Shown here: positions 36,804 to 61,591 of the stretch, in pieces
How the letters are laid out: every line of letters begins with the position of its first letter
Numbering within the stretch: position 1 is the first letter of the stretch
NCBI GenBank assembly: GCA_026989495.1
Contig: JALSJE010000073.1
Location: forward strand, 1 to 61,591
DNA: 61,591 bases
Reading direction: 5' to 3'
DNA from: Gammaproteobacteria bacterium
GTDB taxonomy: Bacteria; Pseudomonadota; Gammaproteobacteria; S144-34
The notes under the pieces: model-generated
The model's database searches: none
What the model was told of the DNA's origin: nothing
The model's input: the letters and a program-made list of their open reading frames with translations, nothing else
Translations under genes and position numbers: made by a program

Positions 36804-36807
36804 GCGC

Positions 36808-42795: not shown

Positions 42796-42951
42796 GGAGG
42801 CCGTCGTGGAGGTATCCCGCCGCGCCCGCCGCACGTGGCCGGGCGGGCCTGCGGGACGGCCCCTATTTTGCCCTGCTCGTGGGCGGGGGGCAAAAGCCGC
42901 GCACCGGGCATGCTTGCGCCGTGCCGCCGCGGCCGTTACCGTGCGGCGGCC

Positions 42952-43605
42952 ATGGCAGCGTCGGGACAGGCCCTCGGCGGCGGCCGCCTGGAGGCGGCGG
43001 GGCTCGCATGCGTGCGCGGGGGTCGGGTGCTCTTCCGCGACCTGGACCTCGCCGTCACCGCTGGGCGCATGCTGCTCGTCGAGGGGCCCAACGGCAGCGG
43101 CAAGACCACGCTCCTTCGCGTGCTGTGCGGGCTGCGCGAGCCCGAGGCAGGGGAGGTGCGATGGAACGGCCGGCCCCTGCGCCGGTGGGGGCCCGCCTTC
43201 CGGGCCGCAGTGGCCTACGTGGGCCATGCGCCGGGGCTCAAGGACGACCTCACCGCCGTCGAGAACCTCCGCATGGCCGCGGCCCTGGGCGGTCACGCCC
43301 CCGCCATGCCCCCCGGGGAGGCGCTCGAGCGGGTGGGGCTGTCCGATCGCGCCCAGGTGCGGGCGGGCGCGCTCTCGGCCGGCCAGCGCCGCCGGCTGGG
43401 GCTGGCGCGCCTGCTGGTGCGCCCCGCCGTTCTGTGGGTGCTGGACGAGCCGCTCAGCGCGGTGGACCGGGCGGGCGAGCGTCTGGTGGCGGGGCTGCTC
43501 GCCGCCCATCTCGCCGCGGGCGGCCTGGCGGTGGTGACCAGCCACGCCCCCATCGGGGTGGAGCCCGGTCGTGTGGCGACCTTGCGGCTGGGGGCGGCGC
43601 CGTGA
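42952..43605 (+). CDS. ccmA: Heme ABC exporter ATPase
   Basis: GPNGSGKT, LSAGQRRR, WVLDEP. Confidence 0.94.
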   Translation: MAASGQALGGGRLEAAGLACVRGGRVLFRDLDLAVTAGRMLLVEGPNGSGKTTLLRVLCGLREPEAGEVRWNGRPLRRWGPAFRAAVAYVGHAPGLKDDLTAVENLRMAAALGGHAPAMPPGEALERVGLSDRAQVRAGALSAGQRRRLGLARLLVRPAVLWVLDEPLSAVDRAGERLVAGLLAAHLAAGGLAVVTSHAPIGVEPGRVATLRLGAAP

Positions 43606-44288
43606 GCGTCGAGGCTTCGGCGGGTTCGGCCTTCGCGGCGCTGGTGCGCCGCGACCTGCTCCTCGCCTGGCGCCGCCGCGGCGACCGGCTGGTGCCGCTC
43701 GCCTTCTTCGTGATGGTGGCGGCCCTCTTCCCGCTGGGTATTGGTCCCGAACGGGCGGTGCTGTCCGGCATAGCCCCGGGGGTGGTATGGGCAGGGGCGG
43801 TGCTGGCCACCCTCCTCGGCATGGACGCGCTGTTCCGATCCGACCTCGAGGACGGCACCCTGGAGCAGCTGCTGCTTTCGCCCCTGCCCGCGCCGGTGCT
43901 GGTGCTGGCCAAGGTGCTGGCCCACTGGCTGGCCACGGGGCTGCCCCTGGTGCTGGCCGGGCCGGTGCTGGGCGCCGCGCTCCACCTCCCCGCAGCGGCC
44001 CAGCCGGCGCTGGTGGGCGGCCTCCTGCTGGGCACCCCCGCCCTGAGCCTGGTGGGCGCGGTGGGGGCGGCGCTCACGGTGGGCCTGCGCCGGGGCGGGA
44101 TGCTGCTGCCGGTGCTGCTGCTGCCGCTGTACGTCCCGGTGCTGGCCTTCGGGGCGGGCGCGGTGGCCGCGGCGGCCTCGGGCCTGTCGGCGGCGGGCCA
44201 CCTGTATGCCCTGGGTGCGGTGCTGGCGCTGGCGGTGACGCTGGCGCCCGTGGGTGCGGCCGCGGGGCTGCGGGTGAGCGTGGCCTGA
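43602..44288 (+). CDS. ccmB: Heme exporter permease
   Basis: LFPLGIGP, DLEDGTLEQLLL, KVLAHW, LPLYVPVL. Confidence 0.94.
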   Translation: MSVEASAGSAFAALVRRDLLLAWRRRGDRLVPLAFFVMVAALFPLGIGPERAVLSGIAPGVVWAGAVLATLLGMDALFRSDLEDGTLEQLLLSPLPAPVLVLAKVLAHWLATGLPLVLAGPVLGAALHLPAAAQPALVGGLLLGTPALSLVGAVGAALTVGLRRGGMLLPVLLLPLYVPVLAFGAGAVAAAASGLSAAGHLYALGAVLALAVTLAPVGAAAGLRVSVA

Positions 44289-44375
44289 TCCGGCCGGAAA
44301 GGCGACAATGTGGCATCCGGGGCCGCGGTCCAGGCGGGGAACCTATACCCGCCGCGGGCATCTGAGGAGAACGGT

Positions 44376-45092
44376 ATGGTGGCACACCTGCTCACACCCC
44401 AGGGGCTCGACGGCTTCGCTGCGCGGTGGGCGCCCCGCCTGCTGTGGACGGCGGGCCTGATGATCGCGGCAGGCCTCTACGGTGGGCTGGTGCTCGCGCC
44501 GGTCGACGAGGAGCAGGGGGAGGCCTACCGCATCATCTATGTCCATGTGCCGGCGGCATGGCTCTCGCTCTACGGCTACATGGCGATGGCGGCCGCCGGT
44601 GCGGTGGCTCTCATCTGGCGCATCCGCGTGGCCGAGGTCCTGCTGGGGGCGGCCGCGCCGGTGGGAGCGGCCTTCACGGCGCTCGCGCTCGCCACGGGCG
44701 CCATCTGGGGCAAGCCCATGTGGGGCACCTGGTGGGTATGGGACGCACGCCTCACATCGGAGCTCATCCTGCTTTTCCTCTACATCGGCGTGATGGCGTT
44801 GCGGTCGGCCGCCGAGGATCCCCGCGCGGGGGCACGCGCCGCGGCCATCCTGGCGCTGGCCGGGGTGGTGAACGTGCCGATAATCCATTTCTCGGTGGAA
44901 TGGTGGAACACCCTGCACCAGGGCCCCACAGTGACCCGGCTGGCCGCACCGGCCATCCATCCAGCGATGCTGGTGCCGTTGCTGCTGATGGCGGCGGCGT
45001 TCATGGTCTATCACGCCGGGGCCGTGCTGCTGCGGGTGCGCTGCCTGCTGGCCGTCGAGCCGGCCGCGGCCCTTGCGGAGGAGCGCGCATGA
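44376..45092 (+). CDS. ccmC: Heme exporter CcmC
   Basis: [30 protein letters not shown]. Confidence 0.96.
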
Positions 45093-45223
45093 GCCTACTG
45101 GACTTCCTCTCCATGGGGGGATATGGCGCCTACGTCTGGAGCGCCTATGCGCTGATGGTGGCGGTGCTGGCCTGGAACGTCGCGGCGCCGCTCGTCTGCC
45201 TGCGCCGCCGGAGGCGGCCATGA
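45089..45223 (+). CDS. ccmD: CcmD
   Basis: [12 protein letters not shown] with a basic tail. Confidence 0.9.
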
Positions 45224-45705
45224 GCGTGGCGCTGCCGCACATGCCCCGCGGAGCCCGCCGCCGCGCCATGGGCGTGCTGGCGCTGCTCGTCGGGGTGGGC
45301 GTTGCGGTCGCGCTCGCGCTGCTCGCCCTGCGGGAGAACATCAACCTTTTCTACAGCCCGAGCGAGGTGGCCGCGGGCGAGGCACCCACGGGCCGCGTGG
45401 TGCGCGTCGGCGGGCTCGTGCAGGCGGGAAGCGTGAGGCGTGCCGAGGAGGGGCTTGACGTGGAGTTCGTGCTCACCGACGGAGCGGCCACCGTGACGGT
45501 GCGCTACCGCGGGATCCTGCCCGATCTCTTCCGCGAGGGGCAGGGCATCGTCGCCCAGGGGCGGCTCGGGCCGGAGGGGGTGCTGGTCGCCGACCAGGTG
45601 CTCGCCAAGCACGACGAGAACTACATGCCGCCCGAGGTCGCCGACGCGCTGCGCGAGGCACATGAGCGCAGCGTGCGTGGCGCCGCCCCGGGAGGTGCGC
45701 CGTGA
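45220..45705 (+). CDS. ccmE: Heme chaperone CcmE
   Basis: [20 protein letters not shown]. Confidence 0.96.
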
Positions 45706-47675
45706 CCGCCGAGCTCGGGCACCTCGCGCTGGCACTGGCGCTGGCCCTGGCGGCGCTCCAGGCCGTGCTCGGCCTGGGCGGCGGTGCCCGGGGCGATGCG
45801 GCCTGGATCGCTGGCGCGCTCGGTGCGGCCCGGGGCCAGGCGCTGCTGACGGTGATCGCCTTCGCCGCCCTCACCTGGGCGGCGGTGCGAAGCGACTTCA
45901 CGCTGCTCTACCTGGCGCAGAATTCCAACAGCCAGCTTCCCCTGCTCTACAAGATCACGGGGGTGTGGGGCGCCCACGAGGGCTCGCTCCTGCTGTGGGG
46001 CATGGTGCTCGCCCTGTGGGGCGCCGCGGTGGCCATCCAGGGCCGACGCGCCCTGCCGGCCGCCTTCCTCGCCCGCCTGGTCGGTGTGCTCGGCCTGGTG
46101 GGCACGGGGTTCCTCGCCTTCCTCCTGCTCACATCCAACCCCTTCGAGCGGCTGTGGCCGCCGCCCCCCGAAGGTCGCGATCTCAACCCTCTGCTGCAGG
46201 ATCCCGGCCTCGCGGCGCATCCGCCCCTGCTCTACATGGGGTATGTGGGGCTGGCCGTGCCCTTTGCCTTCGCCGTGGCGGCGCTGCTCGAAGGGCGCAT
46301 GGAAGCGGCCTGGCTGCGCTGGGCGCGCCCGTGGGCGGCGGTGGCCTGGGTGTTTCTCACCCTCGGCATCGCCATCGGGAGCTGGTGGGCCTACTACGAG
46401 CTGGGTTGGGGCGGCTGGTGGTTCTGGGATCCCGTCGAGAACGCCTCGCTCATGCCCTGGCTCGTCGCCACCGCGCTCATCCATTCGCTGGCCGTGAGCG
46501 AGAAGCGCGGGGCCTTCAAGGGCTGGACCGTGCTGCTCGCCGTGCTCGCCTTCGCGCTGAGCCTGCTCGGCACCTTCCTCGTGCGCTCGGGCGTGCTCAC
46601 CTCCGTCCATGCCTTCGCGAGCGACCCCACGCGCGGGGTCTTCATACTGGTGCTCCTGCTGGCGGTGGTGGGGGGATCGCTTCTCCTCTATGCCCTGCGG
46701 GGCGAGCGGCTGGGTGTGTCCGACGTCCGCTTCGCCCCGGTCTCGCGCGAGGGTGCCCTGCTCGCCAACAACGCGCTCCTGCTCGCGGCGGCCGGCGCGG
46801 TGCTGATCGGCACACTCTATCCGCTCGTGCTCGAGGCCCTGGGCGGAGCAAAGATCTCCGTCGGTCCACCCTATTTCAACGCGGTCTTCCTTCCCCTGGT
46901 GGCGCCCCTGGTGGCGCTGACGGCCGTGGCGGGCGTCCTGCGATGGAAACGCGACGCGGTGGGGCGCCTCGCACGGCTGCTCTGGCCGGCGGGTCTTGCC
47001 GCTCTCGGCGCCGGCGCAGCCGCCGTCCCGGCCGCGCGGGCGCATCTGGCAGCCGCCGCGGGGGTGGCGCTTGCCGCTTGGCTCGCCGGCGGGATCGCCG
47101 TCGCCCTCTGGCAGCGGGCGCGTCACCAGGGTCTGCGTGGGCTCGCGCGGATGGGCCGGGCGGAGGCCGGCATGCATCTCGCCCATCTCGGGCTCGCCGT
47201 CACGGTGGTGGGGGTGAGCCTGGCCGGGCCGCTCGAGCTGGCGCGCGACGTGCGCATGGGAGCGGGCGATGCGGTACGTCTCGGCGGCTACCTTTTCCGG
47301 CTCGAGGGCTTCACGCGGGTGCAGGGCCCGAACTACGAGGGCGTACGCGCACGGTTCCGGGTGCTCGACGGCGATGGTCGCATGGTCGCCCGCCTCTTCC
47401 CGGAGAAGCGCCGCTACGGCTCGCGCACCGACATGCCGATGACGGAGGCCGGCATCGAGGCCGGTGCCTTCCGCGATCTCTACGTCTCGCTCGGCGAGCC
47501 CATCGGGAAGACGGGGGACTGGGCGGTGCGGGTGCACGTGAAGCCCTTCGTCCGCTGGGTATGGGGGGGCGCGCTGCTGATGGCACTGGGTGGGCTGTGG
47601 GCCGCCTCCGACCGGCGCTACCGCATGGGCGTGCGCCTGCGACGTGCGGCCGTCGCCGTGGAGGAACCGGCCTGA
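45702..47675 (+). CDS. ccmF: Cytochrome c heme lyase CcmF
   Basis: [37 protein letters not shown]. Confidence 0.97.
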
Positions 47676-47721
47676 TGGGCGCCGATACGTGGCCTCACCG
47701 GTCGCCGAGGAGGCGGGTGCC

Positions 47722-48276
47722 GTGAGGTTGGGCCCGCACCTGCGCTACGGTCTGCCCCTGCTGGTCTTCGCCGCCCTGGCGGCGCTGCTCTGGCAGGGGC
47801 TCGGGCGCGACCCCAGGCTGGTTCCCTCTCCCCTGGTGGGCAAGCCCGCGCCTGCCTTCAGCCTCCCTTCCCTGCGCGAGCCATCGCGCGTGGTGGGCAC
47901 CGACGATCTCCGTGGCCGCGTGGCCCTGCTCAACGTGTGGGCGAGCTGGTGCACCGCCTGCCGTCAGGAGCATCCGCTGCTGATGCGTGTGGCGCGGGAG
48001 GAGAAGGTGCCCATCTATGGCCTCAACTACAAGGACCGCCGCGAGGATGCGCTGCGCTGGCTCGACGGGCTGGGCGACCCCTATGTGTGGAGCGCGCACG
48101 ATCTCGAGGGCAGGGTCGGCATCGACTGGGGTGTCTATGGGGTGCCGGAGACGTTCGTCATCGATCGGCGGGGCGTGATCCGCTACAAGCACATCGGCCC
48201 GATCGACGAGCGGGCCTGGCGCGAGCGCATCGCGCCCCTGCTGGCCGAGCTGCGCCGCGAGGAGGCCGCACCGTGA
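47722..48276 (+). CDS. ccmG: Thiol:disulfide oxidoreductase CcmG/DsbE
   Basis: WASWCTAC, GVYGVPETF. Confidence 0.95.
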   Translation: MRLGPHLRYGLPLLVFAALAALLWQGLGRDPRLVPSPLVGKPAPAFSLPSLREPSRVVGTDDLRGRVALLNVWASWCTACRQEHPLLMRVAREEKVPIYGLNYKDRREDALRWLDGLGDPYVWSAHDLEGRVGIDWGVYGVPETFVIDRRGVIRYKHIGPIDERAWRERIAPLLAELRREEAAP

Positions 48277-48770: not shown

Positions 48771-49660
48771 GCACCGCGGTCTTCTACGTTCTCGCCGCCG
48801 CGCTCGCGGCGGGGGCGGCGGCGACGGCCCTGGCTCCCCTCCTGCGGGCGCGGCACGGCGGGGCAGACCACCTGGACTCGCGGGCCCGGGCCCACCGCCG
48901 CCGGCTGGCCGAACTGGACGCCGAACACCGCGCCGGCCTGCTCTCGGCCCAGGACCATGCCGAGGCGAGGCGGGAAGTGGAAGCGGCGCTCGCGCGCGAG
49001 CTTGAGGCTGGCGAGGGCCCGGCACCATCCCGCCGGGGGCGGGCTGCCGCGGCAGCACTCGTCGCGGTCGCCCTCGCGGGAGGAATGGCTCTCTACGGCT
49101 GGCTGGGGCGTCCCGACCTCGCCGATCCCTCGCTCGCGGGACGCCTGCCGACGCCCGAGGCGCCGCCGCCCTCCGTCGAGGCCATGGTGGCACGGCTCGA
49201 GGCGCGGCTCAGAGAGCGACCCGAGGACGCGCAGGGCTGGATGATGCTCGGCCGCTCCTACCGGGTCCTGGGGCGGGCCGGAGATGCCGCGCGCGCCTAT
49301 GGCGAGGCCCTCCGGCGGGTGGAGGCCCCGTCTGCGGACCTGCTCGTGGCCTATGCAGAGGCACGCATCCTCGCGGCGGAGGGACAGGTGGACGGGCAGG
49401 CCGCCGGGGCGCTCTCCCGCGCCCTCACCCTGGAGCCGGATCACGCGCTGGGGCTGTGGCTCGACGGGCTCGCCGCCTTCCAGCGCGGCGACTACGCGCG
49501 AGCGCTCGCGCGCTGGGAGCGTGTGCTGAACACCGGCGGGGCTGCCGATCCCCGGGTGGAGTCCATGCTGCGCGAGCAGATCGCCGAGGCGCGCCGCCGC
49601 CTCGACGGCGCCGGCGCCTCATCGGCGCCGGCCGATGGCCAGCCCGAGCAGGAAAAGTAG
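48767..49660 (+). CDS. ccmI: CcmI/CycH TPR protein
   Basis: Two TM helices followed by TPR repeats (GWMMLGRSY, YAEA, A..RW). Confidence 0.9.
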   Translation: MSTAVFYVLAAALAAGAAATALAPLLRARHGGADHLDSRARAHRRRLAELDAEHRAGLLSAQDHAEARREVEAALARELEAGEGPAPSRRGRAAAAALVAVALAGGMALYGWLGRPDLADPSLAGRLPTPEAPPPSVEAMVARLEARLRERPEDAQGWMMLGRSYRVLGRAGDAARAYGEALRRVEAPSADLLVAYAEARILAAEGQVDGQAAGALSRALTLEPDHALGLWLDGLAAFQRGDYARALARWERVLNTGGAADPRVESMLREQIAEARRRLDGAGASSAPADGQPEQEK

Positions 49661-50404
49661 CTGCGCCCCGGTCCCGTGGGCGGTGGCGAGCGCCGCCGTG
49701 GGCACGGCGGTGGCCAGGAAGGCGCCCGTCGCAAGCTGGGCGGCCGCCGCCGCCGCAACCCCGGCGGCCAGGCCCGGACGGGCGGCGCGCAGGAGCCGCC
49801 ATGCCAGCATTCCGGCCGCGAGGGCGAGGCCCACCGCCACCGCCCGGTGGGCCAGATGGAGCGGGGCGGCGGGTCCCGCATCCGCGCCGCACAGAGGCAG
49901 CCCCGGGCAGTCGGCCACGGAGAAGCCCGCCGCGATCGTTCCCCCGTTCACGGCCGCGAGTCCCGCGAACGCGGCCACCAGCAGCCCGAGGCGCCGGACG
50001 CCGGGCTCCGGCGTCCCCGGCGCGGCGAGCCAGGCGAGGGCACCCGCCAGGGCCCAGCCGCCCAGCAGGTTAGCCAGCGTCACCGCATCGCGTGCCGCAT
50101 CGCCCGAGAGCGGCCCGATGAGCGCGAGCCCCGCCACGGCGCCGGCCGCCAGCGTGGCGGCGGCGCGCCCGTCGCGCGTGCGCCACGCCCGCACCAGCAG
50201 CCACGCCACCAGCACGAGGACGAGGAGGGCGAGCATGCGGTGGGCGGGGCGCAGCCCGGCAGGTATGGTGAAGACCGCTTCGCCGTAGCATGAGGGCCAC
50301 GGCTGGCAGCCCAGCCCCGAGCGCAGATGCCGCACGTATGCGCTCAGCGCACCCAGGACCACCGTCGCGGCCGCCGCCGCTGACGACCATTCTCTCAGCG
50401 ACAT
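49619..50404 (-). CDS. Atypical CtaA-like heme-modifying protein
   Basis: SGLGCQPWPSC, AHR, NLLGG (His replaced by Asn), CPGLPLC, AHR, AHG; divergent from the oxidase operon. Confidence 0.78.
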   Translation of the reverse strand: MSLREWSSAAAAATVVLGALSAYVRHLRSGLGCQPWPSCYGEAVFTIPAGLRPAHRMLALLVLVLVAWLLVRAWRTRDGRAAATLAAGAVAGLALIGPLSGDAARDAVTLANLLGGWALAGALAWLAAPGTPEPGVRRLGLLVAAFAGLAAVNGGTIAAGFSVADCPGLPLCGADAGPAAPLHLAHRAVAVGLALAAGMLAWRLLRAARPGLAAGVAAAAAAQLATGAFLATAVPTAALATAHGTGAQLLFLLGLAIGRRR

Positions 50405-50706
50405 GACGGCTCGGGACAGGGCGGGTGGCACCGAACGGCCCGCCGCCTGATGCCGGGCCGCCTGGGGGCTGCTCCTCTCCCGTCTCTCATCGCGTGCCGT
50501 GCGCGCGCGCCTCGCGGCTCCCCGGGGGCAGGGGTGAATCCCGACAGGCGGCCTCCTCCGGACCTGTGCCTTCTCCGAACACGACAGTGCAAGCCCTGCA
50601 GGGTGCGGCGGGCACGGCCGCCGGAGGGCCCCGCAACTGACATCGCGCAGAAGACGGCAGGTGCGGCCGCCGACTCCTGCGCGCCGCGGCATTGTGGCGC
50701 AATCAC

Positions 50707-50720
50707 TTGACCTCCATCAA
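50707..50720. promoter_or_regulatory. FNR box TTGACCTCCATCAA
   Basis: One mismatch to TTGAT-N4-ATCAA, ~100 bp upstream of the operon. Confidence 0.72.
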
Positions 50721-50820: not shown

Positions 50821-51012
50821 ATGGCAGAGCACGAAGACCAGGCGCGCAAAGAGGAAGGGGGGTCGATGGATCAGTTTGGGGCCGACGTGCCCGTCATGCA
50901 GCGCATCCTCGACAGCCCATTCCTGCTCCTGTTCCTGGGAATCACGATCCCCACCGTCTTCTATCTCGTCTGGGGAATCATGGAGATCATCAGCATCCCG
51001 ATCGCGAAATGA
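50821..51012 (+). CDS. Small single-TM subunit (subunit IIa-like)
   Basis: VP.MQR.LD.PFLLLFLG...Y..WG..EI; first gene of the operon. Confidence 0.75.
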   Translation: MAEHEDQARKEEGGSMDQFGADVPVMQRILDSPFLLLFLGITIPTVFYLVWGIMEIISIPIAK

Positions 51013-51076: not shown

Positions 51077-51613
51077 ATGAGCGCGATTCTACCGCCTGCA
51101 CAGCGGCTCTGGTGGAAGGAGCCGGTCGAGCGCATCGAGATCGTCTGGATCGTCCTGGCGTTCGTCTGGTGCCTGATCCTCACCTTCATGATGCCCTACT
51201 GGCACGTCTTCGGTAAGCAGAACCTCTCCAACGAGGCCTACCGCACGACGCCGCAGGCCTTCGCCGCGAAGGCGCAGGCCGTGGTCGACAAGTGGAAGGT
51301 GCGCGAGGTGGGCGGCGTGCCCGTGGTCAGGCCCCCCGCCGGTGCCGATATCTACCTCGTCGGGAGGCTGTGGCAGTGGTGGCCGGCCTACGAGCTCAAG
51401 AAAGGCGAGAGCTACCGTCTGCACCTGTCGTCGCTCGACTGGCAGCACGGCTTCTCTCTCCAGCCGGTCAATATCAACACGCAGGTGCTGCCGGGGTACG
51501 AGATGGTGATCACGATAACGCCGAACGAGGCGGGCGAATACACCATCGTCTGCAACGAGTACTGCGGTATCGGGCACCACAACATGCTCGGCAAGATCTT
51601 CGTGGTGGACTGA
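51077..51613 (+). CDS. Heme-copper oxidoreductase subunit II (CuA), B-family/eNOR type
   Basis: One TM helix, HGFS, CNEYCGIGHHNM. Confidence 0.92.
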   Translation: MSAILPPAQRLWWKEPVERIEIVWIVLAFVWCLILTFMMPYWHVFGKQNLSNEAYRTTPQAFAAKAQAVVDKWKVREVGGVPVVRPPAGADIYLVGRLWQWWPAYELKKGESYRLHLSSLDWQHGFSLQPVNINTQVLPGYEMVITITPNEAGEYTIVCNEYCGIGHHNMLGKIFVVD

Positions 51614-51626: not shown

Positions 51627-53330
51627 ATGGCCGTCGATCGCACCTTCCGCATCTGCCCCCAGACGGGGCTCGCCTACCATCGGTCCGCCGAGCAGCTCAT
51701 GAAGGCCCATGCCGTCGCCGGCGTGGTGGCCCTGCTGGTGGGCGGTGTGCTCGCGCTGTTCGTGGCGCTCACCCGCTGGCCGGCCGTGCACATGCTGCCG
51801 GCGGACAGGTTCTACCAGGCGCTCACGGCGCACGGCATCGACATGCTGATCTTCTGGATCATCTTCTTCGAGATCGCCGTGCTCTACTTCACCTCCTCCA
51901 CCCTGCTGCGGGCCCGCCTGGCCTCGCCGCGCGTCGGGTGGGCCGGGTTCGCCCTTATGGTGATCGGCGCCTTGATCACCAACTGGGCCATTCTGCGCGG
52001 CAAATCCAGCGTGATGATGACCTCCTACGTGCCCATGCCGGCCGAGCCCAGCTTCTACCTGGGGCTCATCCTGTTCGCGGTGGGGGCGCTGATCGGCTGC
52101 TTCATCTTCCTCGCCACGCTGGTTATCGCGCGCTACGAGCGCACCTATGAAGGCTCCATCCCGCTGGTCACCTTCGGGGCGCTCACGGCCTGCATCATCG
52201 CCATCCTCACCATCGCCAACGGCGCCATCATCCTGATCCCCACCTGGCTGTGGTCGCTGGGATACATATCCAATATTGACCCCCTCATGTACCGCGTCGT
52301 GTGGTGGGCCTTGGGGCATCCTTCTCAGCAGATCAACGTCTCGGCCCATGTGGCAGTGTGGTACGCCATCGCGGCCATCGTCTTCGGCGCCAAGCCCATG
52401 TCGGAGAAGGTCAGCCGGATGGCCTTCCTGCTCTACATTCTGTTCCTGCAGCTCGCCTCGGCCCACCATCTGCTCGTCGACCCCGGGGTGAGCGCGGAAT
52501 GGAAGATGTTCAACACCAGCTACGCCATGTATCTGGCGGTGCTGGCGAGCATGATCCACGGGCTGACGGTCCCGGGCTCGATCGAGGTGGCCCAGCGGCG
52601 CAAGGGCTACACCAAGGGCCTGTTCGAGTGGCTGCGCAAGGCGCCGTGGGGCAACCCCGTCTTCTCGGGGATGTTCATCTCGCTGGTGGTGTTCGGTTTC
52701 CTCGGGGGTATCTCCGGGGTGGTGATGGGTACCGAGCAGATCAACATCATCATCCACAACACCATCTACGTGCCCGGTCACTTCCATGCCACCGTGGCCA
52801 CCGGCACCACGCTCGCCTTCATGGCGCTCACCTACTTCCTCATCCCCACGCTGTTCCGGCGTGAGCTCATCATGCAGGGCCTTGCCAAGTGGCAGCCCTA
52901 CATCTTCGGCATCAGCATGGCGGTGCTGTCGCTGTTCATGATGGGCGCAGGCACGCTGGGCGTGGCCCGCAGGCACTGGGACATGGCATTCGCCGGCAAC
53001 CCACTCGGCTTCGAGTATCCCACCACCGCCTATCTGATGATGGGTCTGGTGGGGATCGCGGGCGTCGGCGCGGTGATCGGCGGCGCGGCCTATATCCTTA
53101 TTACGGTGGGATCGATCCTCTTCGGGCGGAAGCTCCCCGCCGGCGAGATCACCACGCAGCCGGAGCCGGTGCGCGCCCCCGTATCCGAGGCCTTGGAGGG
53201 CCATGGCGGCGGGGTGGGTGTGCTGGAGGCGCGCGGCACCTTCGCGCTGGCCATGCTCCTGCTCGTGAGCTTCGTGATCTACTACTTCATCAACTGGAAG
53301 TACCTGGCCTCGGTCTGGGGCCTGAGCTGA
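51627..53330 (+). CDS. Heme-copper oxidoreductase subunit I, eNOR-type nitric oxide reductase
   Basis: All six His present (TAHG, GHPSQQIN, AHH, GHFH); Gln sits at the position of the cross-linked Tyr of HPxVY. Confidence 0.85.
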   Translation: MAVDRTFRICPQTGLAYHRSAEQLMKAHAVAGVVALLVGGVLALFVALTRWPAVHMLPADRFYQALTAHGIDMLIFWIIFFEIAVLYFTSSTLLRARLASPRVGWAGFALMVIGALITNWAILRGKSSVMMTSYVPMPAEPSFYLGLILFAVGALIGCFIFLATLVIARYERTYEGSIPLVTFGALTACIIAILTIANGAIILIPTWLWSLGYISNIDPLMYRVVWWALGHPSQQINVSAHVAVWYAIAAIVFGAKPMSEKVSRMAFLLYILFLQLASAHHLLVDPGVSAEWKMFNTSYAMYLAVLASMIHGLTVPGSIEVAQRRKGYTKGLFEWLRKAPWGNPVFSGMFISLVVFGFLGGISGVVMGTEQINIIIHNTIYVPGHFHATVATGTTLAFMALTYFLIPTLFRRELIMQGLAKWQPYIFGISMAVLSLFMMGAGTLGVARRHWDMAFAGNPLGFEYPTTAYLMMGLVGIAGVGAVIGGAAYILITVGSILFGRKLPAGEITTQPEPVRAPVSEALEGHGGGVGVLEARGTFALAMLLLVSFVIYYFINWKYLASVWGLS

Positions 53331-53384: not shown

Positions 53385-54296
53385 ATGCGGGCGGGATCGG
53401 CGGCACGGGTGCAGGCGGAAGCAGATGCGGGCAGGCTGCAGGCCTTCCTCGGCCTCTGGAAGCCCCGCATCGGAATGGCCATCGGCTTCACCGGGGTCAC
53501 GGGCTACGCGCTGGCCGCCGGTCCCGCCTTCGATCCCGTGCTCGCCGCCTGGCTGTTTGCGGGGATGATGCTCGCGGCGGGAGGTGCCGGCGCCTTCAAC
53601 CAGTATGTGGAGCGCGACCTGGACGCGCGCATGCGCCGCACGCGCTCGCGTCCCTTCGTCACGGGCGAGTTCCGTGCCGGACCGCACTGGCTCATGGCCA
53701 TCGCGCTCGTCACGGGCACCGGGGTGGCGCTCACCGCCTGGCGCGCAGGCCCGTGGGCCGCCGTGGGGACGGCGCTCGGCACGCTCGTCTACGCGGTGGT
53801 CTACACCCTGTGGCTCAAGCGGCGCACGCATTGGAACATCGTGATCGGGGGGCTGGCGGGGAGCCTGGCCCTGCTCGCGGGCGCGGGGGCCGTCTCGGGC
53901 CAGGCCATGGGTGCGCCGCTGGTGGTGGCCTTCGCCGTGGTCCTGTTCCTCTGGACCCCCTCGCACTTCTGGAGCCTCGCCATCGCCCTGCGCAGCGACT
54001 ACGAGGCGGCGGACGTGCCCATGCTGCCGGCGGTGGCCGGCCCGCGGCATACCGCGCGTGTGGTGCTCGCCAACACGGTGGTCCTGGTGGCGGCCAGCTT
54101 CGTCCCGGCCGCCCTGGGGCTCGGCCCCGTCTACGGTCTGGTGGCCGCGGGCGCCGGGGCACTGTTCCTCTGGCACAATCTGCGCCAGGTGCGCGCACCC
54201 ACGCCCGCGTCCGGGCGCGCCAACTTCCGCGTCTCTCTCGTGCATCTCGCCCTGCTGCTGGGGGCGGCCACGCTCGCCGCCACCGGTATCTGGTAG
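53385..54296 (+). CDS. ctaB: Heme O synthase (protoheme IX farnesyltransferase)
   Basis: KPRI, NQYVERDLDARMRRTRSRP, YTLWLKRRT, WTPSHFW, VPMLP. Confidence 0.94.
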   Translation: MRAGSAARVQAEADAGRLQAFLGLWKPRIGMAIGFTGVTGYALAAGPAFDPVLAAWLFAGMMLAAGGAGAFNQYVERDLDARMRRTRSRPFVTGEFRAGPHWLMAIALVTGTGVALTAWRAGPWAAVGTALGTLVYAVVYTLWLKRRTHWNIVIGGLAGSLALLAGAGAVSGQAMGAPLVVAFAVVLFLWTPSHFWSLAIALRSDYEAADVPMLPAVAGPRHTARVVLANTVVLVAASFVPAALGLGPVYGLVAAGAGALFLWHNLRQVRAPTPASGRANFRVSLVHLALLLGAATLAATGIW

Positions 54297-54307: not shown

Positions 54308-55081
54308 ATGCGTGCGCTGGCGACGCTCCTGCTCGCGGCCGTGGCGCTGCCGGCGGCGGCGCTCGACCCCGAGCGCGCGCTGGCCGTGAGCCAGGCCGCC
54401 ATCGGCCGGCAGGTCTCCGACCACGTGCTCGTGCGCGCCGACGGCACCACGCTGCGGCTCTCGGAGCTCGCCGGCGTGCCCCTCGTGGTGAGCCTGGTCT
54501 ACACCGGCTGCTACCGGATCTGCCCCACCACCACGCGGCATCTGCTGCGGATGGCGCGGCTTGCGCGCAAGGCCCTGGGGCCCGGGCGCTTCAAGGTGCT
54601 GGTGATCGGCTTCGACACCGCACAGGACACCCCCGAGGCCATGCAGGTCTACGCGCGCAAGCAGGGCGCGGCAGGCGAGCCGGACTGGCTCTTCCTGAGC
54701 GCCGACGCCCGCACCGCCCGGGCGCTCGCCCGCGAGCTGGGCTTCGTCTATGAGCCCTCCCCGCGCGGATTCGACCACCTGCTCCAGGTGAGCGTGCTCG
54801 ACGGCGAGCGCCGCGTCTACCGCCAGGTCTACGGCGACGCCTTCACGGCGCCCCAGCTCGTCGAGCCCCTCAAGGAGCTGGCCCTGGGCCGGCGTGCGGA
54901 CAAGGGCCTGCTCGCCCACCTCGCGGATCGCGTGCGGCTCTTCTGCACCACCTACGACCCGTCCACGGGGGCGTACCGCTTCGACTACTCGCTCTTCATC
55001 GGCCTCACCATCGCGGCCCTCATCCTCCTGTCCACGCTGGCCTTCCTCGTGCACGAGCTGCGCCGCCGGGGCGCTTCTTGA
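54308..55081 (+). CDS. SCO1/SenC copper chaperone with C-terminal TM helix
   Basis: YTGCYRICP, FDH, YG..F, FC..YDP..G.Y. Confidence 0.9.
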   Translation: MRALATLLLAAVALPAAALDPERALAVSQAAIGRQVSDHVLVRADGTTLRLSELAGVPLVVSLVYTGCYRICPTTTRHLLRMARLARKALGPGRFKVLVIGFDTAQDTPEAMQVYARKQGAAGEPDWLFLSADARTARALARELGFVYEPSPRGFDHLLQVSVLDGERRVYRQVYGDAFTAPQLVEPLKELALGRRADKGLLAHLADRVRLFCTTYDPSTGAYRFDYSLFIGLTIAALILLSTLAFLVHELRRRGAS

Positions 55082-55091: not shown

Positions 55092-55524
55092 GGTTGGGCC
55101 GCTCACGCGGGCCCTAGCATCATCGGTATGAGATCCATCCCGTGCGCACCCCCATCCGGAACCGTGGCGGCCGCCGCAGGTGCGGCGCGGTTGCGGACGC
55201 GCGGGATGGGGTGCGGGCGGCGATGCGGTCTGCGCGGGACGCGAGGACCGACGCTCGCGCTCGGCGCCGGGCCGCGCTGCCTGCGACTGGCCTTCGCGCC
55301 GCTGCGCGGCGCTTCGGCCCCGTGTCCGCGCGGCCGTCCCCGGCCGGCGACGCCCGCGCATCCCGCCTCCCCACACGCACGGGGGAGGGTGTGGGGGTGA
55401 GCGAGGCGCGCCGCAGCGCCCTCAGGTGGGGGGATCTGATTCTGTCGTCGCGCTCGAACCCCATCCGCCTGCGGTGGAATCCGGCAGGGAGGGCAGCGCC
55501 GACGCGGGGCGAGGAGGAGGGCAG

Positions 55525-57099
55525 GTGCAGGCGCTGCTGAGGCTGCTGCGGCGGGGATTCGAGCCCCTGGAGGCGGTCGGCTACCGCCTCTTCGGCGGCG
55601 AGAGCCCCTTCCACCATCTGGGCGCGCTCACCATCTACCTGTTCTGGATCGTGCTGGTGAGCGGCATCTACGTCTTCGCCTTCTACCACACGAGCGTCGC
55701 GGGGGCCTACGAGTCGGTCCAGCGCCTGACCGAGGAGCAGTGGTGGCTGGGCGGGGTCATGCGCAGCCTCCACCGCTACGCCTCGGATGCGGCCGTGCTC
55801 ACCCTGGGGCTGCACATCTTCCGCGAACTCTCGCGTGACCACCACCGCGGGCCGCGCTGGTTCTCCTGGATCACCGGGGTGCCCAACCTGTGGATGGTCT
55901 ACATGCTGGGCATCACGGGCTACTGGATGGTGTGGGACGAGCTCGCCCAGTACATCGCCGTCGCCACCGCCGAGCTCCTCGACTGGCTGCCCATCTTCAC
56001 CGACCCCATGGCGCGCAACTTCCTCACGGAGGGCAGCCTGGGCGACCGCTTCTTCACCCTGCTCGCCTTCCTGCACCTGCTGGGCCTGCCCCTCATTCTG
56101 GTGGGCACCGTCTGGCTCCACATCCAGCGCATCAGCCGCCCGCGCATCAACCCGCCGAGGCGGCTGGCGCTGGGGACCCTGCTGGCCCTGCTCGCGCTTT
56201 CCTTCGTGCAGCCGGCGTCGAGCCACGCTCCGGCAGACCTCACGCGCGCGCCCCAGGTGCTCAGCCTCGACTGGTTCTACCTCGCCATCTATCCGCTCTA
56301 CGACCTGTTCGGTGCTGCGGTGGTGTGGGGGGTGCTGTGGGGCGGGACGCTGCTGCTGTGCGCGCTGCCGTGGCTGCCGCCGCGGCGGCGCGAGTCCGTG
56401 GCCGAGGTGGATCCGGCCTGGTGCAACGGCTGCCGGCGCTGCTTCGGCGACTGCCCCTATGGCGCCATCGAGATGGCGCCCCATCCCGACAAGCGCGGCA
56501 AGGAGATCTCGGTGGTCGACCCTGCCCTGTGCGTGAGCTGCGGGATCTGCGAGGGGGCCTGTCCCTCGGCCACCCCCTTCCGCAGCGTGCGAGAGCTGGT
56601 GAGCGGCATCGAGCTGCCCCAGTACCCGGTGCAGGTGCTGCGCGAGCGCGCGCGCGCTGCGGCCCGGCGCCTGAGCGGGCCGGTGCGCATCGTGGTTTTC
56701 GGGTGCCGGCATGCGGCCGACCCCGCGCAGGTGACGGGGCCGGACACCGCCTCGGTCCCTCTGGTGTGCGCAGGGATGCTGCCGCCTTCCCTCGTCGAGT
56801 ACCTCATCCGCCGCGAGGGCGTGGACGGGGTGGTGATCTCCGGCTGCCGCGCCGGGGACTGCGAGTACCGTCTCGGCACGCGCTGGGTCGAGGAGCGGCT
56901 GGCGGGCACGCGCGAGCCGCATCTGCGGCGCAACGTGCCGCGCGAGCGCATCGCCGTGTGCTGGAGCGGCCCAGACGCGGCCATGCTGCGTGCGTGCGTG
57001 GACGGGCTGCGCGCGCGGCTGGCCGCGCGGTCGCGCGCGGACGAGGCCGGCGGCGGGGCGCGTCCACCCGCGGCGGCGGCCGGAGGCGGCCATGGCTGA
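55525..57099 (+). CDS. Cytochrome b(6)-like / 2x[4Fe-4S] ferredoxin / MvhD-like fusion protein
   Basis: RSLHRY..LHIFR and FLH..WLH (four heme His); CNGCRRCFGDCP, CVSCGICEGACP; FGC..CAG..SGCRAGDC. GAGGAGGAGG RBS, GTG start. Confidence 0.88.
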   Translation: MQALLRLLRRGFEPLEAVGYRLFGGESPFHHLGALTIYLFWIVLVSGIYVFAFYHTSVAGAYESVQRLTEEQWWLGGVMRSLHRYASDAAVLTLGLHIFRELSRDHHRGPRWFSWITGVPNLWMVYMLGITGYWMVWDELAQYIAVATAELLDWLPIFTDPMARNFLTEGSLGDRFFTLLAFLHLLGLPLILVGTVWLHIQRISRPRINPPRRLALGTLLALLALSFVQPASSHAPADLTRAPQVLSLDWFYLAIYPLYDLFGAAVVWGVLWGGTLLLCALPWLPPRRRESVAEVDPAWCNGCRRCFGDCPYGAIEMAPHPDKRGKEISVVDPALCVSCGICEGACPSATPFRSVRELVSGIELPQYPVQVLRERARAAARRLSGPVRIVVFGCRHAADPAQVTGPDTASVPLVCAGMLPPSLVEYLIRREGVDGVVISGCRAGDCEYRLGTRWVEERLAGTREPHLRRNVPRERIAVCWSGPDAAMLRACVDGLRARLAARSRADEAGGGARPPAAAAGGGHG

Positions 57100-57598
57100 G
57101 CGCGCTGCGGCGCGGATGCTCGGGCAGGCGCTGGCCTATGCGGCATTCGCCGCTTTCGTGGGCCTTTTCGCCGTGCGCCCGGCCTGGACCCGCCTCCCGC
57201 CGGATACCGCCGAGCTCAAGGTGAGCATCGTGCACCGCGGCCAGCCCGTGGGCGAGTGCCGTGAGCGCACCGAGGAGGAGCTCGCGCGCCTGCCGCCCAA
57301 CATGCGCATCCGCGTGGTGTGTCCGCGCGAGCGGTCGCCGCTCGAGCTCGAGATCTACCTCGACGGGCGGCTGCTGCACCGTGAGATCAAGGCTCCCAGC
57401 GGGCTCCGGCACGACGGGCCGGCCTACATTTACCACCGCTTCGCCGTGCCGGCAGGGGAGCACATCGTGCGAGTCCGCCTGCGCGACAGCGTGCGCGTGG
57501 AAGGATATCCCTACGAGCGCGAGGAGCGGGTGCGGCTCGACCCCGGACGCTCGCTCGCTGTGGATTTCGATCCCCTCCAGGGTATCCGGTTCCGCTGA
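57092..57598 (+). CDS. Membrane-anchored periplasmic hypothetical protein
   Basis: Overlaps the upstream stop; N-terminal TM, H..C..NMR..CPRER, beta-rich domain. Confidence 0.8.
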   Translation: MAERAAARMLGQALAYAAFAAFVGLFAVRPAWTRLPPDTAELKVSIVHRGQPVGECRERTEEELARLPPNMRIRVVCPRERSPLELEIYLDGRLLHREIKAPSGLRHDGPAYIYHRFAVPAGEHIVRVRLRDSVRVEGYPYEREERVRLDPGRSLAVDFDPLQGIRFR

Positions 57599-57607: not shown

Positions 57608-59020
57608 ATGGAGGAGGTGAGCGGCATATTGCGGACGGGGGAGCGCGTGCCCGCGCGCACGCGTGTCGTGCAGGCCTACGCGCTGCCGGTGCCCGCGGGC
57701 GTGGCCGCAGCGCTCGCGCGCGGCTGGCTCCGGCTGGGTGTGGGGGCGCTGCTGCTGTCGGGGCTCTTCTCCGTCCTCATCGTGCTGTCCCGCGCCCCGG
57801 GCGTGGCCGAGCGCCTGCCGTGGACCAACCTCTTCCACACGGCGCTGGTCGTGCATGTGGACCTGTCGGTGCTGGTGTGGTTCCTGGCCTTCGCGGGCGT
57901 GCTCTGGAGCCTGCACGGGGCCGAGCGTGCGCCCGCGCTCGGACGTACGGCGCTTGCACTGTCCACTGTCGGCACGGGGGTGATGGCCGCCGCCCCCTTC
58001 CTGGGCGCGGACCGGCCGCTCATGAGCAACTACATCCCGGTGCTGGACCATCCCCTGTTCCTGGCGGGGCTGCTCCTCTTCGGCGCGGGCTGCCTCGTGC
58101 AGCTCGCGCGCGCGCTGACGCTGGCTCCACCCGTGGGGCCTGCCATCACGGGTGAGGGTGCGCTGCGCTTCGGCATCAACACGGCCTCGGTAGCGGCGGG
58201 CATGGCCGTGCTGGCCTTCGCCTGGTCCTGGCTGCTGCTGCCGGAATTTCTTGCCGGCAAGGAGCGTTACGAGCAGCTCTTCTGGGGCGGCGGGCACGTG
58301 CTGCAGTACGTGCACACCCAGCTCATGCTGGTGGCCTGGCTGTGGCTCGCCCAGCAGGCGGGCCTGCGCCTCGCGCTCACGCCCCGGGTGGTGGTGGTGC
58401 TGTTCGCCTGGGGGCTGGTCACCGTCTTCCTCACCCCGCTCATCTATCTCGCCTTCGAATTCGGCTCGGTCCCGCACCTGCGGGCCTTCACCTGGATGAT
58501 GGCCTTCGGCGGAAGCCTCGCCGCCGCCCCCATCGGGCTCGCCGTGCTGGTGGGGCTGGCCCGGGCCGGCCCTGCCACGGGCGATGGGTCCGTCGCGCGC
58601 AGCGGGCTTGCGGCCTCGCTGCTGCTCTTCGGAGTGGGCGGGCTGCTCGGCTTCGCCATCGAGGGCGGAGACGTGCGCGTGCCGGCCCATTACCACGGGA
58701 GCATCGTCGGCATCACCCTCGCCTTCATGGCGCTCGCCTACCTGCTCATGCCGTGCCTGGGGCTCGGCCGGCCGCCGGTGCGGCTGGCGCGCTGGCAGCT
58801 GCGCCTCTACGCCGGCGGGCAGCTCCTGCACGTGCTGGGGCTGGCCTGGTCCGGCGGCTACGGCGTGCCGCGCAAGACGCCCGGCGCCGCCCAGGGGCTC
58901 GACACGCTGCCCGAGATCCTCGGCATGGCGGTGATGGGCGTGGGCGGGCTGCTCGCCATCGTCGGCGGCATGCTCTTCGTGGTCGCGGCGGGCATGGCCC
59001 TGGCGCGTCACACGAATTGA
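57608..59020 (+). CDS. Degenerate heme-copper oxidase subunit-I-like membrane protein
   Basis: About 12 TM helices; VHVD, FWGGGHVLQY, PAHYHG, G..G.PRK; no HH pair in helix VII. Confidence 0.78.
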   Translation: MEEVSGILRTGERVPARTRVVQAYALPVPAGVAAALARGWLRLGVGALLLSGLFSVLIVLSRAPGVAERLPWTNLFHTALVVHVDLSVLVWFLAFAGVLWSLHGAERAPALGRTALALSTVGTGVMAAAPFLGADRPLMSNYIPVLDHPLFLAGLLLFGAGCLVQLARALTLAPPVGPAITGEGALRFGINTASVAAGMAVLAFAWSWLLLPEFLAGKERYEQLFWGGGHVLQYVHTQLMLVAWLWLAQQAGLRLALTPRVVVVLFAWGLVTVFLTPLIYLAFEFGSVPHLRAFTWMMAFGGSLAAAPIGLAVLVGLARAGPATGDGSVARSGLAASLLLFGVGGLLGFAIEGGDVRVPAHYHGSIVGITLAFMALAYLLMPCLGLGRPPVRLARWQLRLYAGGQLLHVLGLAWSGGYGVPRKTPGAAQGLDTLPEILGMAVMGVGGLLAIVGGMLFVVAAGMALARHTN

Positions 59021-59030
59021 TCCAGATCAA
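59017..59030. promoter_or_regulatory. Perfect FNR box TTGATCCAGATCAA
   Basis: Exact consensus, ~60 bp upstream of the fnr-like gene. Confidence 0.8.
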
Positions 59031-59090: not shown

Positions 59091-59849
59091 ATGCCCCGGC
59101 CCACGCGAGCCACCGCGAGCGGAGACGCCGGCACCACGCTGCGTTGCCGGCGCTGCTGCTTCGGCCCCCTGTGCCTGCCGGGCGGTGTCCAGCCCGCCGA
59201 GGTCGCGCTGCTGGACGGCGTGGTGGAGGCGCGACGCACCCTCGCCGCAGGCGAGGTCCTGGTGCAGGCGGATGCCCCTTTCCGCGCCCTCTACGCCGTG
59301 CGCTCCGGCTCGCTCAAGTCGCAGGTCCGCTGCGGCGAGCGCGTCCAGGTGCTGGCGTTCCATTTTCCGGGCGAGCTCGCCGGGTGGGATGGCATCGGCC
59401 ATGGGCGCCACCGCGTCGAGGTGGTGGCCCTGGAGCCGTCCTCGGTGTGCTTGATCCGCTATCACCGCCTGATGGGGCTCGCCGACCGCATCCCGCGCCT
59501 CTACCGCCGCCTTCTGGCGCTGATGGCGGGCGCCACACAGTGCGACTGGACCGTGGCCGTGGCCGGGCCGGGTGGTGACGCCGAGCAGCGCGTGCTCGCT
59601 TTCCTGCTCAACCTGGCCGAGCGCCGGCTGGCGGCGGGGCTCGCGGTGGACGAGGTGCGCCTCGGCATGTCGCGCGACGACATCGCCAGCTACCTCGGCC
59701 TGGCCCCGGAGACGGTCAGCCGCGCCATGGTGCGCGTGAGCCGCAGCGGTCTGGTGCGCATCCACCGCCGGCGGGTGCGCTTCGGCGACCTCGAAGCTCT
59801 GCGCGCCGCCGTCCTCTCCGGGTGCCCGGAGCTCGCCGCCGCCGAATGA
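59091..59849 (+). CDS. Fnr-family regulator 1
   Basis: CRRCCFGPLC, SVC, FHFPGEL.G.DG, MSR.DIASYLGL..ETVSR. Confidence 0.9.
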   Translation: MPRPTRATASGDAGTTLRCRRCCFGPLCLPGGVQPAEVALLDGVVEARRTLAAGEVLVQADAPFRALYAVRSGSLKSQVRCGERVQVLAFHFPGELAGWDGIGHGRHRVEVVALEPSSVCLIRYHRLMGLADRIPRLYRRLLALMAGATQCDWTVAVAGPGGDAEQRVLAFLLNLAERRLAAGLAVDEVRLGMSRDDIASYLGLAPETVSRAMVRVSRSGLVRIHRRRVRFGDLEALRAAVLSGCPELAAAE

Positions 59850-61275: not shown

Positions 61276-61591
61276 TCAGTCGCCCACCACCCGCACGGTC
61301 CCCCGCATCTCTTCATGGGGGCCGCAGCGATACGTGTAGCGTCCGGGCCGCTCGAAGCGGCGTTCGTAGCTCTCTCCGGGAAAGAAGTACTCCGGCTCGG
61401 GCTCACCCGACTCCTCGAACCAGACGCTGTGATACTGGCGCCGTTCCCGGTTGATCCAGCGGACGGTTGTTCCAGGTCTGATCACGATCTCCGCGGGCTC
61501 GAAGGCGTAACGCCGTATCTCCACGATCACGACGTCGCCGTGACCGTCACCGGCTGCCCCAGCCCACGCTGGTGTCGATGCCCATCCGAGC
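61276..61591 (-). CDS. Cupredoxin (plastocyanin/amicyanin-like), 5' end outside the window
   Basis: F.PAEI.I.PGTTV.W.N..HSV..YRCGPHEEM type-1 Cu site. Confidence 0.88.
   Translation of the reverse strand, partial: LGWASTPAWAGAAGDGHGDVVIVEIRRYAFEPAEIVIRPGTTVRWINRERRQYHSVWFEESGEPEPEYFFPGESYERRFERPGRYTYRCGPHEEMRGTVRVVGD

Follow-up and report, generated by a model that had tools for sequence, protein, structure and literature searches.

What does a bc-type cytochrome b do when it carries cytoplasmic iron-sulfur domains and has no Rieske or cytochrome c1 gene beside it? The question is raised by a gene at 55525..57099 (+) in a 61,591-nt stretch of DNA, referred to here as the window (contig JALSJE010000073.1 of the gammaproteobacterial assembly GCA_026989495.1, lineage S144-34). 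The gene encodes a 524-amino-acid protein, delineated by its open reading frame (ORF), by Pfam and NCBIfam matches and by an AlphaFold2 (AF2) model, in which a cytochrome b, a ferredoxin domain for two [4Fe-4S] clusters and an MvhD-like domain are joined in a single chain. A first-pass annotation of this DNA had treated the fusion as unusual and had suggested that it could be a transmembrane wire, acting either as a respiratory electron donor or as a reductant for copper or haem assembly. The present analysis adds a point beyond that annotation: by its residues the adjoining haem-copper enzyme is an eNOR-type nitric-oxide reductase, and across the genomes compared the fusion is a fixed member of the eNOR gene cluster.

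Linkage of the fusion to eNOR

The haem-copper enzyme is encoded by two genes on the same strand as the fusion. Subunit II (51077..51613, +) was recognized by Pfam and NCBIfam; its CuA motif, CNEYCGIGHHNM, and a glutamate at the start of its transmembrane (TM) helix, Glu21, a candidate counterpart of the eNOR residue E-(II)21, were read from the sequence. Subunit I (51627..53330, +; COX1, E 1.7e-68) was closest to the B-family ba3 oxidases among PDB chains. Aligned with 7deg_A, it has GHPSQQ for GHPVVY, which places Gln at the cross-linked Tyr, and SMIH for SMIT in the K-channel, and its Tyr falls at His+15 when counted without a one-residue gap placed by HMMER. In Dataset S1 of Murali et al. 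(2024, PNAS; PMC11214002), eNOR is marked by Q-245 for Y-237, H-321 for T-312, retention of S-318 and Y-256, and E-(II)21 in subunit II. Since the window enzyme combines Gln at the Tyr position and SMIH with CuA and Glu21, it is assigned by these residues to the eNOR-type nitric-oxide reductases and not to the oxygen reductases. The idea that the fusion serves as a quinol-oxidase module for a B-family oxygen reductase was dropped once the neighbour proved to be eNOR.

A genome collection yielded 80 loci that carry the fusion, many of them cut by contig ends, from Gamma-, Beta-, Alpha-, Delta- and Zetaproteobacteria and Nitrospirae. Subunit I of eNOR (at least 40% identity) was present in 61 of these loci and absent from only three of those with at least 5 kb of upstream DNA. 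Among five genomes with an eNOR-less locus, three carried an eNOR-like subunit I (52–58% identity) on another contig and two gave only weak matches. A SCO1 gene lay directly 5' of the fusion gene in 65 of the 80 loci and elsewhere in the locus in seven more. The class was also sampled evenly, with 300 scored genomes: 17 of them carry the fusion (E <= 1e-30) and 16 carry eNOR subunit I (E <= 1e-60), and all 16 of the latter have both; these genomes are related, so the co-occurrence is a description and not a statistical test. The one genome with the fusion only (G099) is about 80% complete, and its match lies on a short contig.

Similar proteins have been recorded beside eNOR before. An appendix table (PMC8756737) lists a 'cytochrome b6 / DMSOR_beta-like / FlpD' protein next to the enzyme. 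A preprint on Ferrigenium (10.64898/2026.01.22.701106) describes an eNOR operon with a pair of cytochrome b-FeS genes, of which one also encodes FAD and NADH domains, and reports cytochrome b-FeS proteins in the proteome of denitrifying cultures.

Domain organization and topology of the fusion

The combination of cytochrome b, dicluster ferredoxin and MvhD-like domain proposed in the first-pass annotation was recovered in full by Pfam, with matches to Cytochrome_B (PF00033) at residues 29-202 (60.2 bits against a cut-off of 27.2), to Fer4_7, a dicluster ferredoxin, at residues 300-348, and to FlpD/MvhD (PF02662) at residues 406-482 (36.3 bits against a cut-off of 22.3). NCBIfam matched cytochrome b6/ExtP at 29-209, the subunit IV-like ExtQ at 218-290 and, at 292-489, the C-terminus of HdrA2, consisting of a ferredoxin and an MvhD tail (E 1.5e-17), all three under their equivalog cut-offs. 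The similarity to MvhD extended to solved MvhD chains, as the C-terminal part of the fusion matched 9sw2_D (E 2e-8) and 5odc_D (E 2e-7), and the ferredoxin domain matched the C-terminal ferredoxin domain of HdrA (5odc_A 576-631).

The motifs that had been read from the sequence were all found again. In the membrane domain (residues 28-283; 55606..56373, +), delimited by Pfam, conservation, AF2 and Foldseek, six helices correspond to helices A–F of bc1 cytochrome b. The haem ligands are H83/H97, 13 residues apart, and H184/H199 in helix D, 14 apart, which is the b6 pattern. The equivalent of the Qo motif is LDWFY at residues 248-252, of which LDWF (248-251) occupies 56266-56277 (+). The dicluster ferredoxin domain (56398..56574, +) holds two CxxCxxCxxxCP motifs with C300/303/306/310 and C336/339/342/346, and further motifs of the protein are CNGCRRCFGDCP and CVSCGICEGACP. 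The MvhD/FlpD-like domain (56686..56970, +) contains C394, C415, C441 and C446, which we take to be [2Fe-2S] ligands from what is known of MvhD; three of the four align with Cys of both 9sw2_D and 5odc_D, and C394 lies outside the printed alignment.

Conservation was judged from 72 sequences, the window protein and those of 71 related loci, only those of the 80 loci being used that were covered to at least 75% and had an intact 3' end. The four haem His, the eight ferredoxin Cys, C394, C415 and C446 were kept in 72/72 and C441 in 71/72. D249-W250 was likewise invariant (72/72), followed by Phe251 in 63/72 and preceded by L, F, I or V, and the conserved residues of the cd loop were b6-like.

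The AF2 model of the fusion, built from 55 homologues (mean pLDDT 88.4, pTM 0.84), has six TM helices with cd and ef surface helices and ends its membrane part after helix F. Foldseek matched the first ~285 residues best to the bc1 cytochrome b 7rja_K (E 3.8e-9, 287 columns), with E values of 4e-9 to 1e-6 across bc1 and b6 cytochromes, cytochrome b6 being covered over fewer residues. An even number of helices puts the Fe-S domains on the same side as the N-terminus, and homology with bc1 makes this inner side the cytoplasm. The distribution of Lys and Arg, with 13 on predicted cytoplasmic segments and three on periplasmic ones, agrees with this topology, which had been named as a check on the wire proposal. 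By sequence and model, the fusion is thus a real membrane di-haem cytochrome b of the bc1/b6 type with Fe-S domains attached.

Compared with the bc1/b6f cytochromes (PF00033; 7rja, 1vf5), the fusion shares the fold of helices A–F, the four His, the b6 spacing in helix D and the cd and ef elements. It differs in having six helices rather than eight, in lacking Rieske, c1/f or subunit IV partners, in having Asp-Trp-Phe for Glu-Trp-Tyr, and in its cytoplasmic Fe-S tail. The remark that no Rieske or c1 gene is nearby holds for the related loci as well: all 80 were without one in the 8 kb to either side (for Rieske, by tblastn with an orphan Rieske protein of the window), and the nearest Rieske gene of the window, encoding that protein, is 25.6 kb away at 29271-29924 (+).

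The fusion gene starts with GTG, 6 nt 3' of GAGGAGGAGGG. It is separated from the SCO1 gene by 443 nt, of which 55330-55516 is a copy of a dispersed repeat of ~100-190 nt, and further copies, 70–95% identical, occur on no fewer than 12 more contigs of this genome; in close relatives (L004) only ~80 nt separate the two genes. No FNR box was found in the 443-nt gap with up to one mismatch allowed.

Distribution and earlier description of the family

The fusion is not as unusual as had been thought. A word-indexed protein search gave 4729 proteins at E <= 0.001 among 8000 candidates, and the best 120 of these, 53–87% identical to the fusion, are listed with the same Pfam set; among the matches listed, source names included 'hydrogenase iron-sulfur subunit' and 'cytochrome b N-terminal domain-containing protein'. 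The architecture had been named the 'PDWF-FeS clade' of cytochrome b by Kao and Hunte (2014, Genome Biol Evol; PMC4122944), who describe its gene clusters as lacking a Rieske protein and treat the DWF-type motif as a Qo motif. Like the members of that clade, the present protein is a cytochrome b of the bc type that has its two bis-His haem sites, keeps a variant of the Qo motif with DWF at its end and carries a non-Rieske part of 4Fe-4S and MvhD domains, and no Rieske gene lies in the cluster. It departs from the clade name in the first residue of the motif, which is Leu in the window protein (LDWF) and L, F, I or V, not Pro, in the 72 relatives. Kao and Hunte (2014) give no function, partner subunit or eNOR link for the clade. 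Carriers of the fusion include Magnetospirillum magneticum AMB-1, which they name, and Thioalkalivibrio denitrificans (locus L009). The architecture is therefore not new, and the window copy is an ordinary member of a widespread, catalogued and uncharacterised family.

The overlapping gene and a predicted two-subunit complex

The stop codon of the fusion gene (TGA, 57097-57099) lies within the start of the next gene, whose ATG is at 57092 and is preceded by GGAGG, so that the two genes overlap, as the first-pass annotation had recorded, by 8 nt. This second gene (57092..57598, +) encodes a 168-amino-acid protein with an N-terminal TM helix and a predicted periplasmic beta-sandwich. It was present in 72 of the 80 loci, and the other eight end within 500 nt past the cytochrome b gene; the gene was thus found in 72/72 loci with more than 500 nt of downstream DNA. 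Natural fusions of cytochrome b with the small subunit, 681–694 amino acids long, made up 7 of 121 proteins compared, and single ORFs of 657–703 amino acids span both subunits in loci L052, L053 and L067.

The model of the 168-aa protein (pLDDT 96.2) shows one TM helix and a beta-sandwich that appears to be without cofactor. It had no match in the PDB by Foldseek at E <= 0.001, and the sequence gave nothing above cut-off in Pfam or NCBIfam and only unnamed clusters in a protein atlas. Its invariant residues are C56, C77, R81, G104 and G122. The H/C/M/C set that had been pointed out earlier (H48, C56, M71 and C77) is indeed present in the window copy, but only the two Cys are invariant (both 60/60), with H48 kept in 53/60 and M71 in 43/60. 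A metal site formed by the four residues is not supported, because invariance is limited to the two Cys.

The partnership with the fusion, which had been suggested as a matter for pull-down, was examined by complex prediction. The pair scored 0.88 in each of three runs, the best control scoring 0.00, and the runs shared at least 96% of contacts with a partner pLDDT of at least 85. In a benchmark, 116 of 157 solved complexes scored this high, as did 2 of 215 mismatched pairs, which is a rough guide since the alignments were self-made. In the model, the helix of the partner packs on helices B and E of the cytochrome, and the sandwich lies over the cd and ef loops, including D249-F251. The fusion would thus differ from the bc1/b6f cytochromes also by a new single-helix, beta-sandwich subunit on its periplasmic face. 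To our knowledge, no similar complex has been solved, but the score is still no more than the verdict of a model. Prediction and natural fusions together point to the 168-aa protein as an obligatory subunit of a two-subunit complex with the cytochrome b fusion.

Other genes of the eNOR cluster

Upstream of the operon lies a CtaA/COX15-like haem A synthase gene (49619..50692, -; PF02628, 45.1 bits), which is transcribed divergently and whose start codon is uncertain. A motif scan found an FNR-type box with one mismatch, TTGACCTCCATCAA (50707..50720, +), 100 nt upstream of the operon, which is headed by a gene for a 63-amino-acid, one-helix protein (50821..51012, +) read from the sequence and with a tblastn homologue in 42 of the 80 loci. 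Between eNOR subunit I and SCO1 is the haem O synthase gene ctaB (53385..54296, +; TIGR01473, 237.6 bits, above cut-off). The residues of subunit I, the CuA subunit II with its candidate Glu21, the adjacent ctaB and ctaA genes and the FNR box are shared with the eNOR cluster of Murali et al. (2024); in the available part of that paper, neither the fusion nor its 168-aa partner is mentioned, nor is the oxidase-like protein described below.

The SCO1-type copper chaperone of the cluster (54308..55081, +; 257 amino acids) has a signal peptide, the CxxxC pair C68 and C72, H157 and a TM anchor. It is divergent, matching PF02630 with only 40.4 bits. In 70 aligned sequences, the CxxxC pair and the His are invariant, and an equally invariant C213-x2-YD-x5-Y-x3-Y motif (Cys 70/70; alignment numbering runs 14 below that of the window protein) is followed by the C-terminal TM anchor. 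We know of no description of a SCO1 form with this C-terminal Cys/Tyr/Asp motif and anchor.

The small subunit gene is followed by a gene for a haem-copper-oxidase-like protein of 470 amino acids (57608..59020, +; COX1, 40.8 bits). Both haem ligand sets (H83, H361, H363) and the metal His H230 are kept in 41/41 sequences; the helix-VII His pair is missing, and H290 is kept in 30/41. The gene was found in 43 of the 80 loci; 21 others have enough DNA to include it but lack it. It probably corresponds to the 'eNOR scaffold protein' of the Ferrigenium preprint, the equivalence of names being a guess.

A perfect FNR box (59017..59030, +), found by motif scan, stands 5' of a gene for an FNR-family regulator (59091-59849; NCBIfam). 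In the window as a whole, three FNR boxes were found against 0.15 expected, and perfect boxes stand 5' of the operon-head gene in at least eight related loci. These boxes imply low-oxygen control. The genome, 2.54 Mb in size and 99.98% complete, carries nirS and nosZ; no nirK above cut-off was found in it, and no other obvious nitric-oxide reductase was seen.

At the edge of the window, a small plastocyanin/amicyanin-like cupredoxin gene (61276-61530, -) encodes a possible periplasmic electron donor to the CuA of eNOR. The window is also rich in copper and cytochrome maturation genes, at 14956-23185 and 31632-48276. These comprise a CusCBA-like RND efflux system, a multicopper oxidase, a DsbD-like protein, a thiol:disulfide oxidoreductase, a cytochrome-d1-like beta-propeller protein, a cytochrome c and ccmC/E/F-like genes.

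Paralogues and direction of electron flow

A second, paralogous cytochrome b was found in two genomes of the class sample. The paralogue in G214 (L084:3672-6212, -) is 64% identical to the fusion over residues 4-275, with the same His and LDWFYL, and its tail of flavodoxin, FAD_binding_1 and NAD_binding_1 domains is a diflavin reductase of the CPR/CysJ type; it lies inside the same eNOR cluster, directly 3' of a canonical SCO1 gene. That in G113 (L085:1583-3571, -) is 53% identical, with the same His and DWFYL, a tail of Fer2, FAD_binding_6 and NAD_binding_1 domains, and a perfect FNR box at its 5' end. Modules of the CPR and [2Fe-2S]-FAD-NAD types oxidise NAD(P)H and pass the electrons on. 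Because such NAD(P)H-input modules are interchangeable on the same membrane domain, they suggest that electrons would move outward, from the cytoplasm through haem bH and then bL to the periplasmic face.

Elsewhere in the genome, an FlpD/MvhD domain occurs just once (contig C90, 38859-39236, -; L003:1348-3468), where it ends an HdrA-like FAD protein that also has a ferredoxin domain, the same tail as that of the fusion. The likeness to the MvhD/HdrA2 tail of Mvh-Hdr complexes (5odc, 9sw2) covers residues 292-489 of the fusion and includes conserved Cys ligands. The difference is that in the fusion the module sits on a membrane cytochrome and not on a flavoprotein, and that the cluster holds no hydrogenase or Hdr genes; none were found in the 80 loci either, nor was any gene for a cytoplasmic partner conserved near the fusion in these loci.

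A possible role in eNOR maturation

Three roles were ranked, with eNOR maturation first, direct electron supply to eNOR second and inward flow from a Qo-like site third. Our preference, a tentative one that may well prove mistaken, is that the fusion and the 168-aa protein form a reductase dedicated to eNOR, by which its copper centre or centres are built or maintained. Electrons would enter on the cytoplasmic side at the MvhD [2Fe-2S] cluster and the two [4Fe-4S] clusters, pass to the inner haem b and cross the membrane to the outer haem b. They would leave at the periplasmic face, where a conserved, Rieske-less remnant of the Qo pocket is predicted to be capped by the small subunit, and the acceptor would be copper and/or the thiols of the membrane-anchored SCO1 of the cluster. 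We infer all three of the direction of flow, the cytoplasmic donor and the acceptor.

Maturation is placed first because of the adjacency of SCO1, which holds also for the CPR-type paralogue, because the SCO1 of the cluster is unusual, and because two-subunit eNOR is active by itself. The reasonable core of the wire proposal, with which this reading agrees, is supported in part by the topology, and the two roles offered for it, maturation and electron supply, are still the two leading options. By analogy only, the complex may be compared with CcoG, the PepSY_TM proteins (CrpH/FoxB) and NOX/FRE, in which a cytoplasmic reductant module is likewise combined with stacked b haems or Fe-S clusters to serve a periplasmic metal; none has a sequence or fold relationship to the fusion. 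CcoG and the PepSY_TM protein CrpH are reductases that serve the maturation of haem-copper enzymes (PMC13038864). The eNOR purified from R. marinus consisted of two subunits and reduced NO with ascorbate/TMPD (Murali et al., 2024; PMC11214002), which places the fusion outside the catalytic core.

Several points weigh against a maturation role. Three deltaproteobacterial loci (L052, L053 and L080) have neither eNOR nor SCO1 within 6–8 kb, two of the genomes holding eNOR elsewhere. Other CuA enzymes, the oxidases and NosZ of the same genome among them, do without such a wire, which leaves the special need of eNOR unexplained, and most copper should be Cu(I) in any case if oxygen is as low as the FNR boxes imply. 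With five redox centres, the complex would be an expensive assembly factor. The known part of MvhD in bifurcating complexes is that of a connector and not of an NAD(P)H input, and the cluster holds no gene for a cytoplasmic partner. The invariant Asp-Trp and the b6-like cd-loop residues could mean that quinone is still bound in the periplasmic pocket. Finally, no paper testing the function of the fusion was found among open-access papers and bioRxiv, and there is no experiment on any member of the family.

Alternative roles

A possible but doubtful alternative is that the outward wire is a private donor for catalysis, feeding the CuA of eNOR directly or through the haem-only oxidase-like protein. 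The resulting ferredoxin/NAD(P)H:NO oxidoreductase supercomplex would bypass the quinone pool, bc1 and cytochrome c, and could serve, for example, in NO detoxification when the main chain is inhibited. The strict co-occurrence with eNOR (16/16), the position of the gene within the cluster and the existence of paralogues with NAD(P)H modules are consistent with such a role, as is the 470-aa neighbour, which keeps two haem sites but not the metal site and could act as an electron relay in the membrane. The Ferrigenium preprint (10.64898/2026.01.22.701106) proposes a supercomplex, with cytochrome b-FeS proteins in the denitrifying proteome, and the presence of nirS and nosZ without another obvious nitric-oxide reductase fits as well. 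However, the CuA subunit of eNOR is a normal one, and after purification the enzyme, with two subunits, runs on an artificial periplasmic donor (Murali et al., 2024). The capping small subunit has no conserved cofactor ligands beyond its two Cys, and the oxidase-like protein is absent from the 21 loci mentioned above. Moreover, for a respiratory enzyme that keeps its K-channel, an outward flow of electrons from NAD(P)H would be wasteful of energy.

Somewhat less likely again is that the fusion is a quinol-oxidising anchor with inward flow, in which at least one electron would pass from a Qo-like pocket through the haems and the Fe-S clusters to a partner in the cytoplasm that binds to MvhD. 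Such a flow could take the form of a simple loop like that of NarI/HdrE or of Rieske-independent bifurcation, with a high-potential electron sent towards eNOR and the other used as a low-potential reductant. The conservation of D249-W250 (72/72), of the Phe that follows in most sequences and of the cd-loop residues argues for a working pocket. MvhD and the HdrA-type ferredoxin domain are established parts of bifurcating Hdr/Mvh complexes, and the genome encodes the HdrA-like FAD protein with its own ferredoxin-MvhD tail. Judging by record titles, many carriers are lithoautotrophs, such as Thioalkalivibrio and Zetaproteobacteria. The motif is taken as a Qo motif by Kao and Hunte (2014), and a coupling in which NO reduction drives that of NAD+ is suggested in the Ferrigenium preprint. 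On the other side, the 80 loci encode neither a Rieske protein nor any different acceptor of high potential, the capping subunit lacks conserved metal ligands, no gene for a conserved cytoplasmic partner lies nearby, and the CPR- and FNR-type modules of the paralogues normally carry electrons from NAD(P)H to an acceptor. The bifurcating form in particular, in which Rieske-less quinol oxidation would send one electron to eNOR, pulled by the very high potential of NO reduction, and the other through the haems, the [4Fe-4S] pair and MvhD to a low-potential reductant, is improbable.

An orphan Rieske gene of the window (29271-29924, +) encodes a bc1-type protein with a TAT signal and the motif CTHLGC...CPCHGS, and has no cytochrome b or c1 gene beside it; the canonical Rieske gene of the genome is paired with a full-length cytochrome b gene on contig C89. 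That the fusion is a subunit of a canonical bc1/b6f-type complex whose Rieske protein and cytochrome c are encoded elsewhere, for which this bc1-type Rieske paralogue, lying 25.6 kb upstream without an adjoining cytochrome b, would be the candidate, is very unlikely, since the fusion stops after helix F and lacks helices G and H, no Rieske gene lies within 8 kb in the 80 loci, the small subunit covers the periplasmic pocket in the complex model, and the pair on C89 is already complete with a cytochrome b of its own.

Significance

The architecture of the present copy is not new, but the copy is clean and complete, and the genome around it is small, almost fully assembled and equipped with nirS and nosZ. 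The interest rests with the family, which is tied to eNOR clusters, rather than with this member of it. By joining a Rieske-less bc-type cytochrome b to Fe-S or flavin modules in the cytoplasm, the family puts a classic respiratory scaffold to a distinct use. If the split-electron reading were true, it would amount to a membrane, quinone-based bifurcation that couples denitrification to the reduction of ferredoxin or NAD(P)+ in lithoautotrophs. As eNOR is among the commonest nitric-oxide reductases in environmental data (Murali et al., 2024; PMC11214002), it bears on N2O production. How this enzyme receives its electrons, and whether denitrification by eNOR conserves energy or spends it, both depend on whether the complex acts in eNOR maturation, as an electron donor or in the reverse direction.

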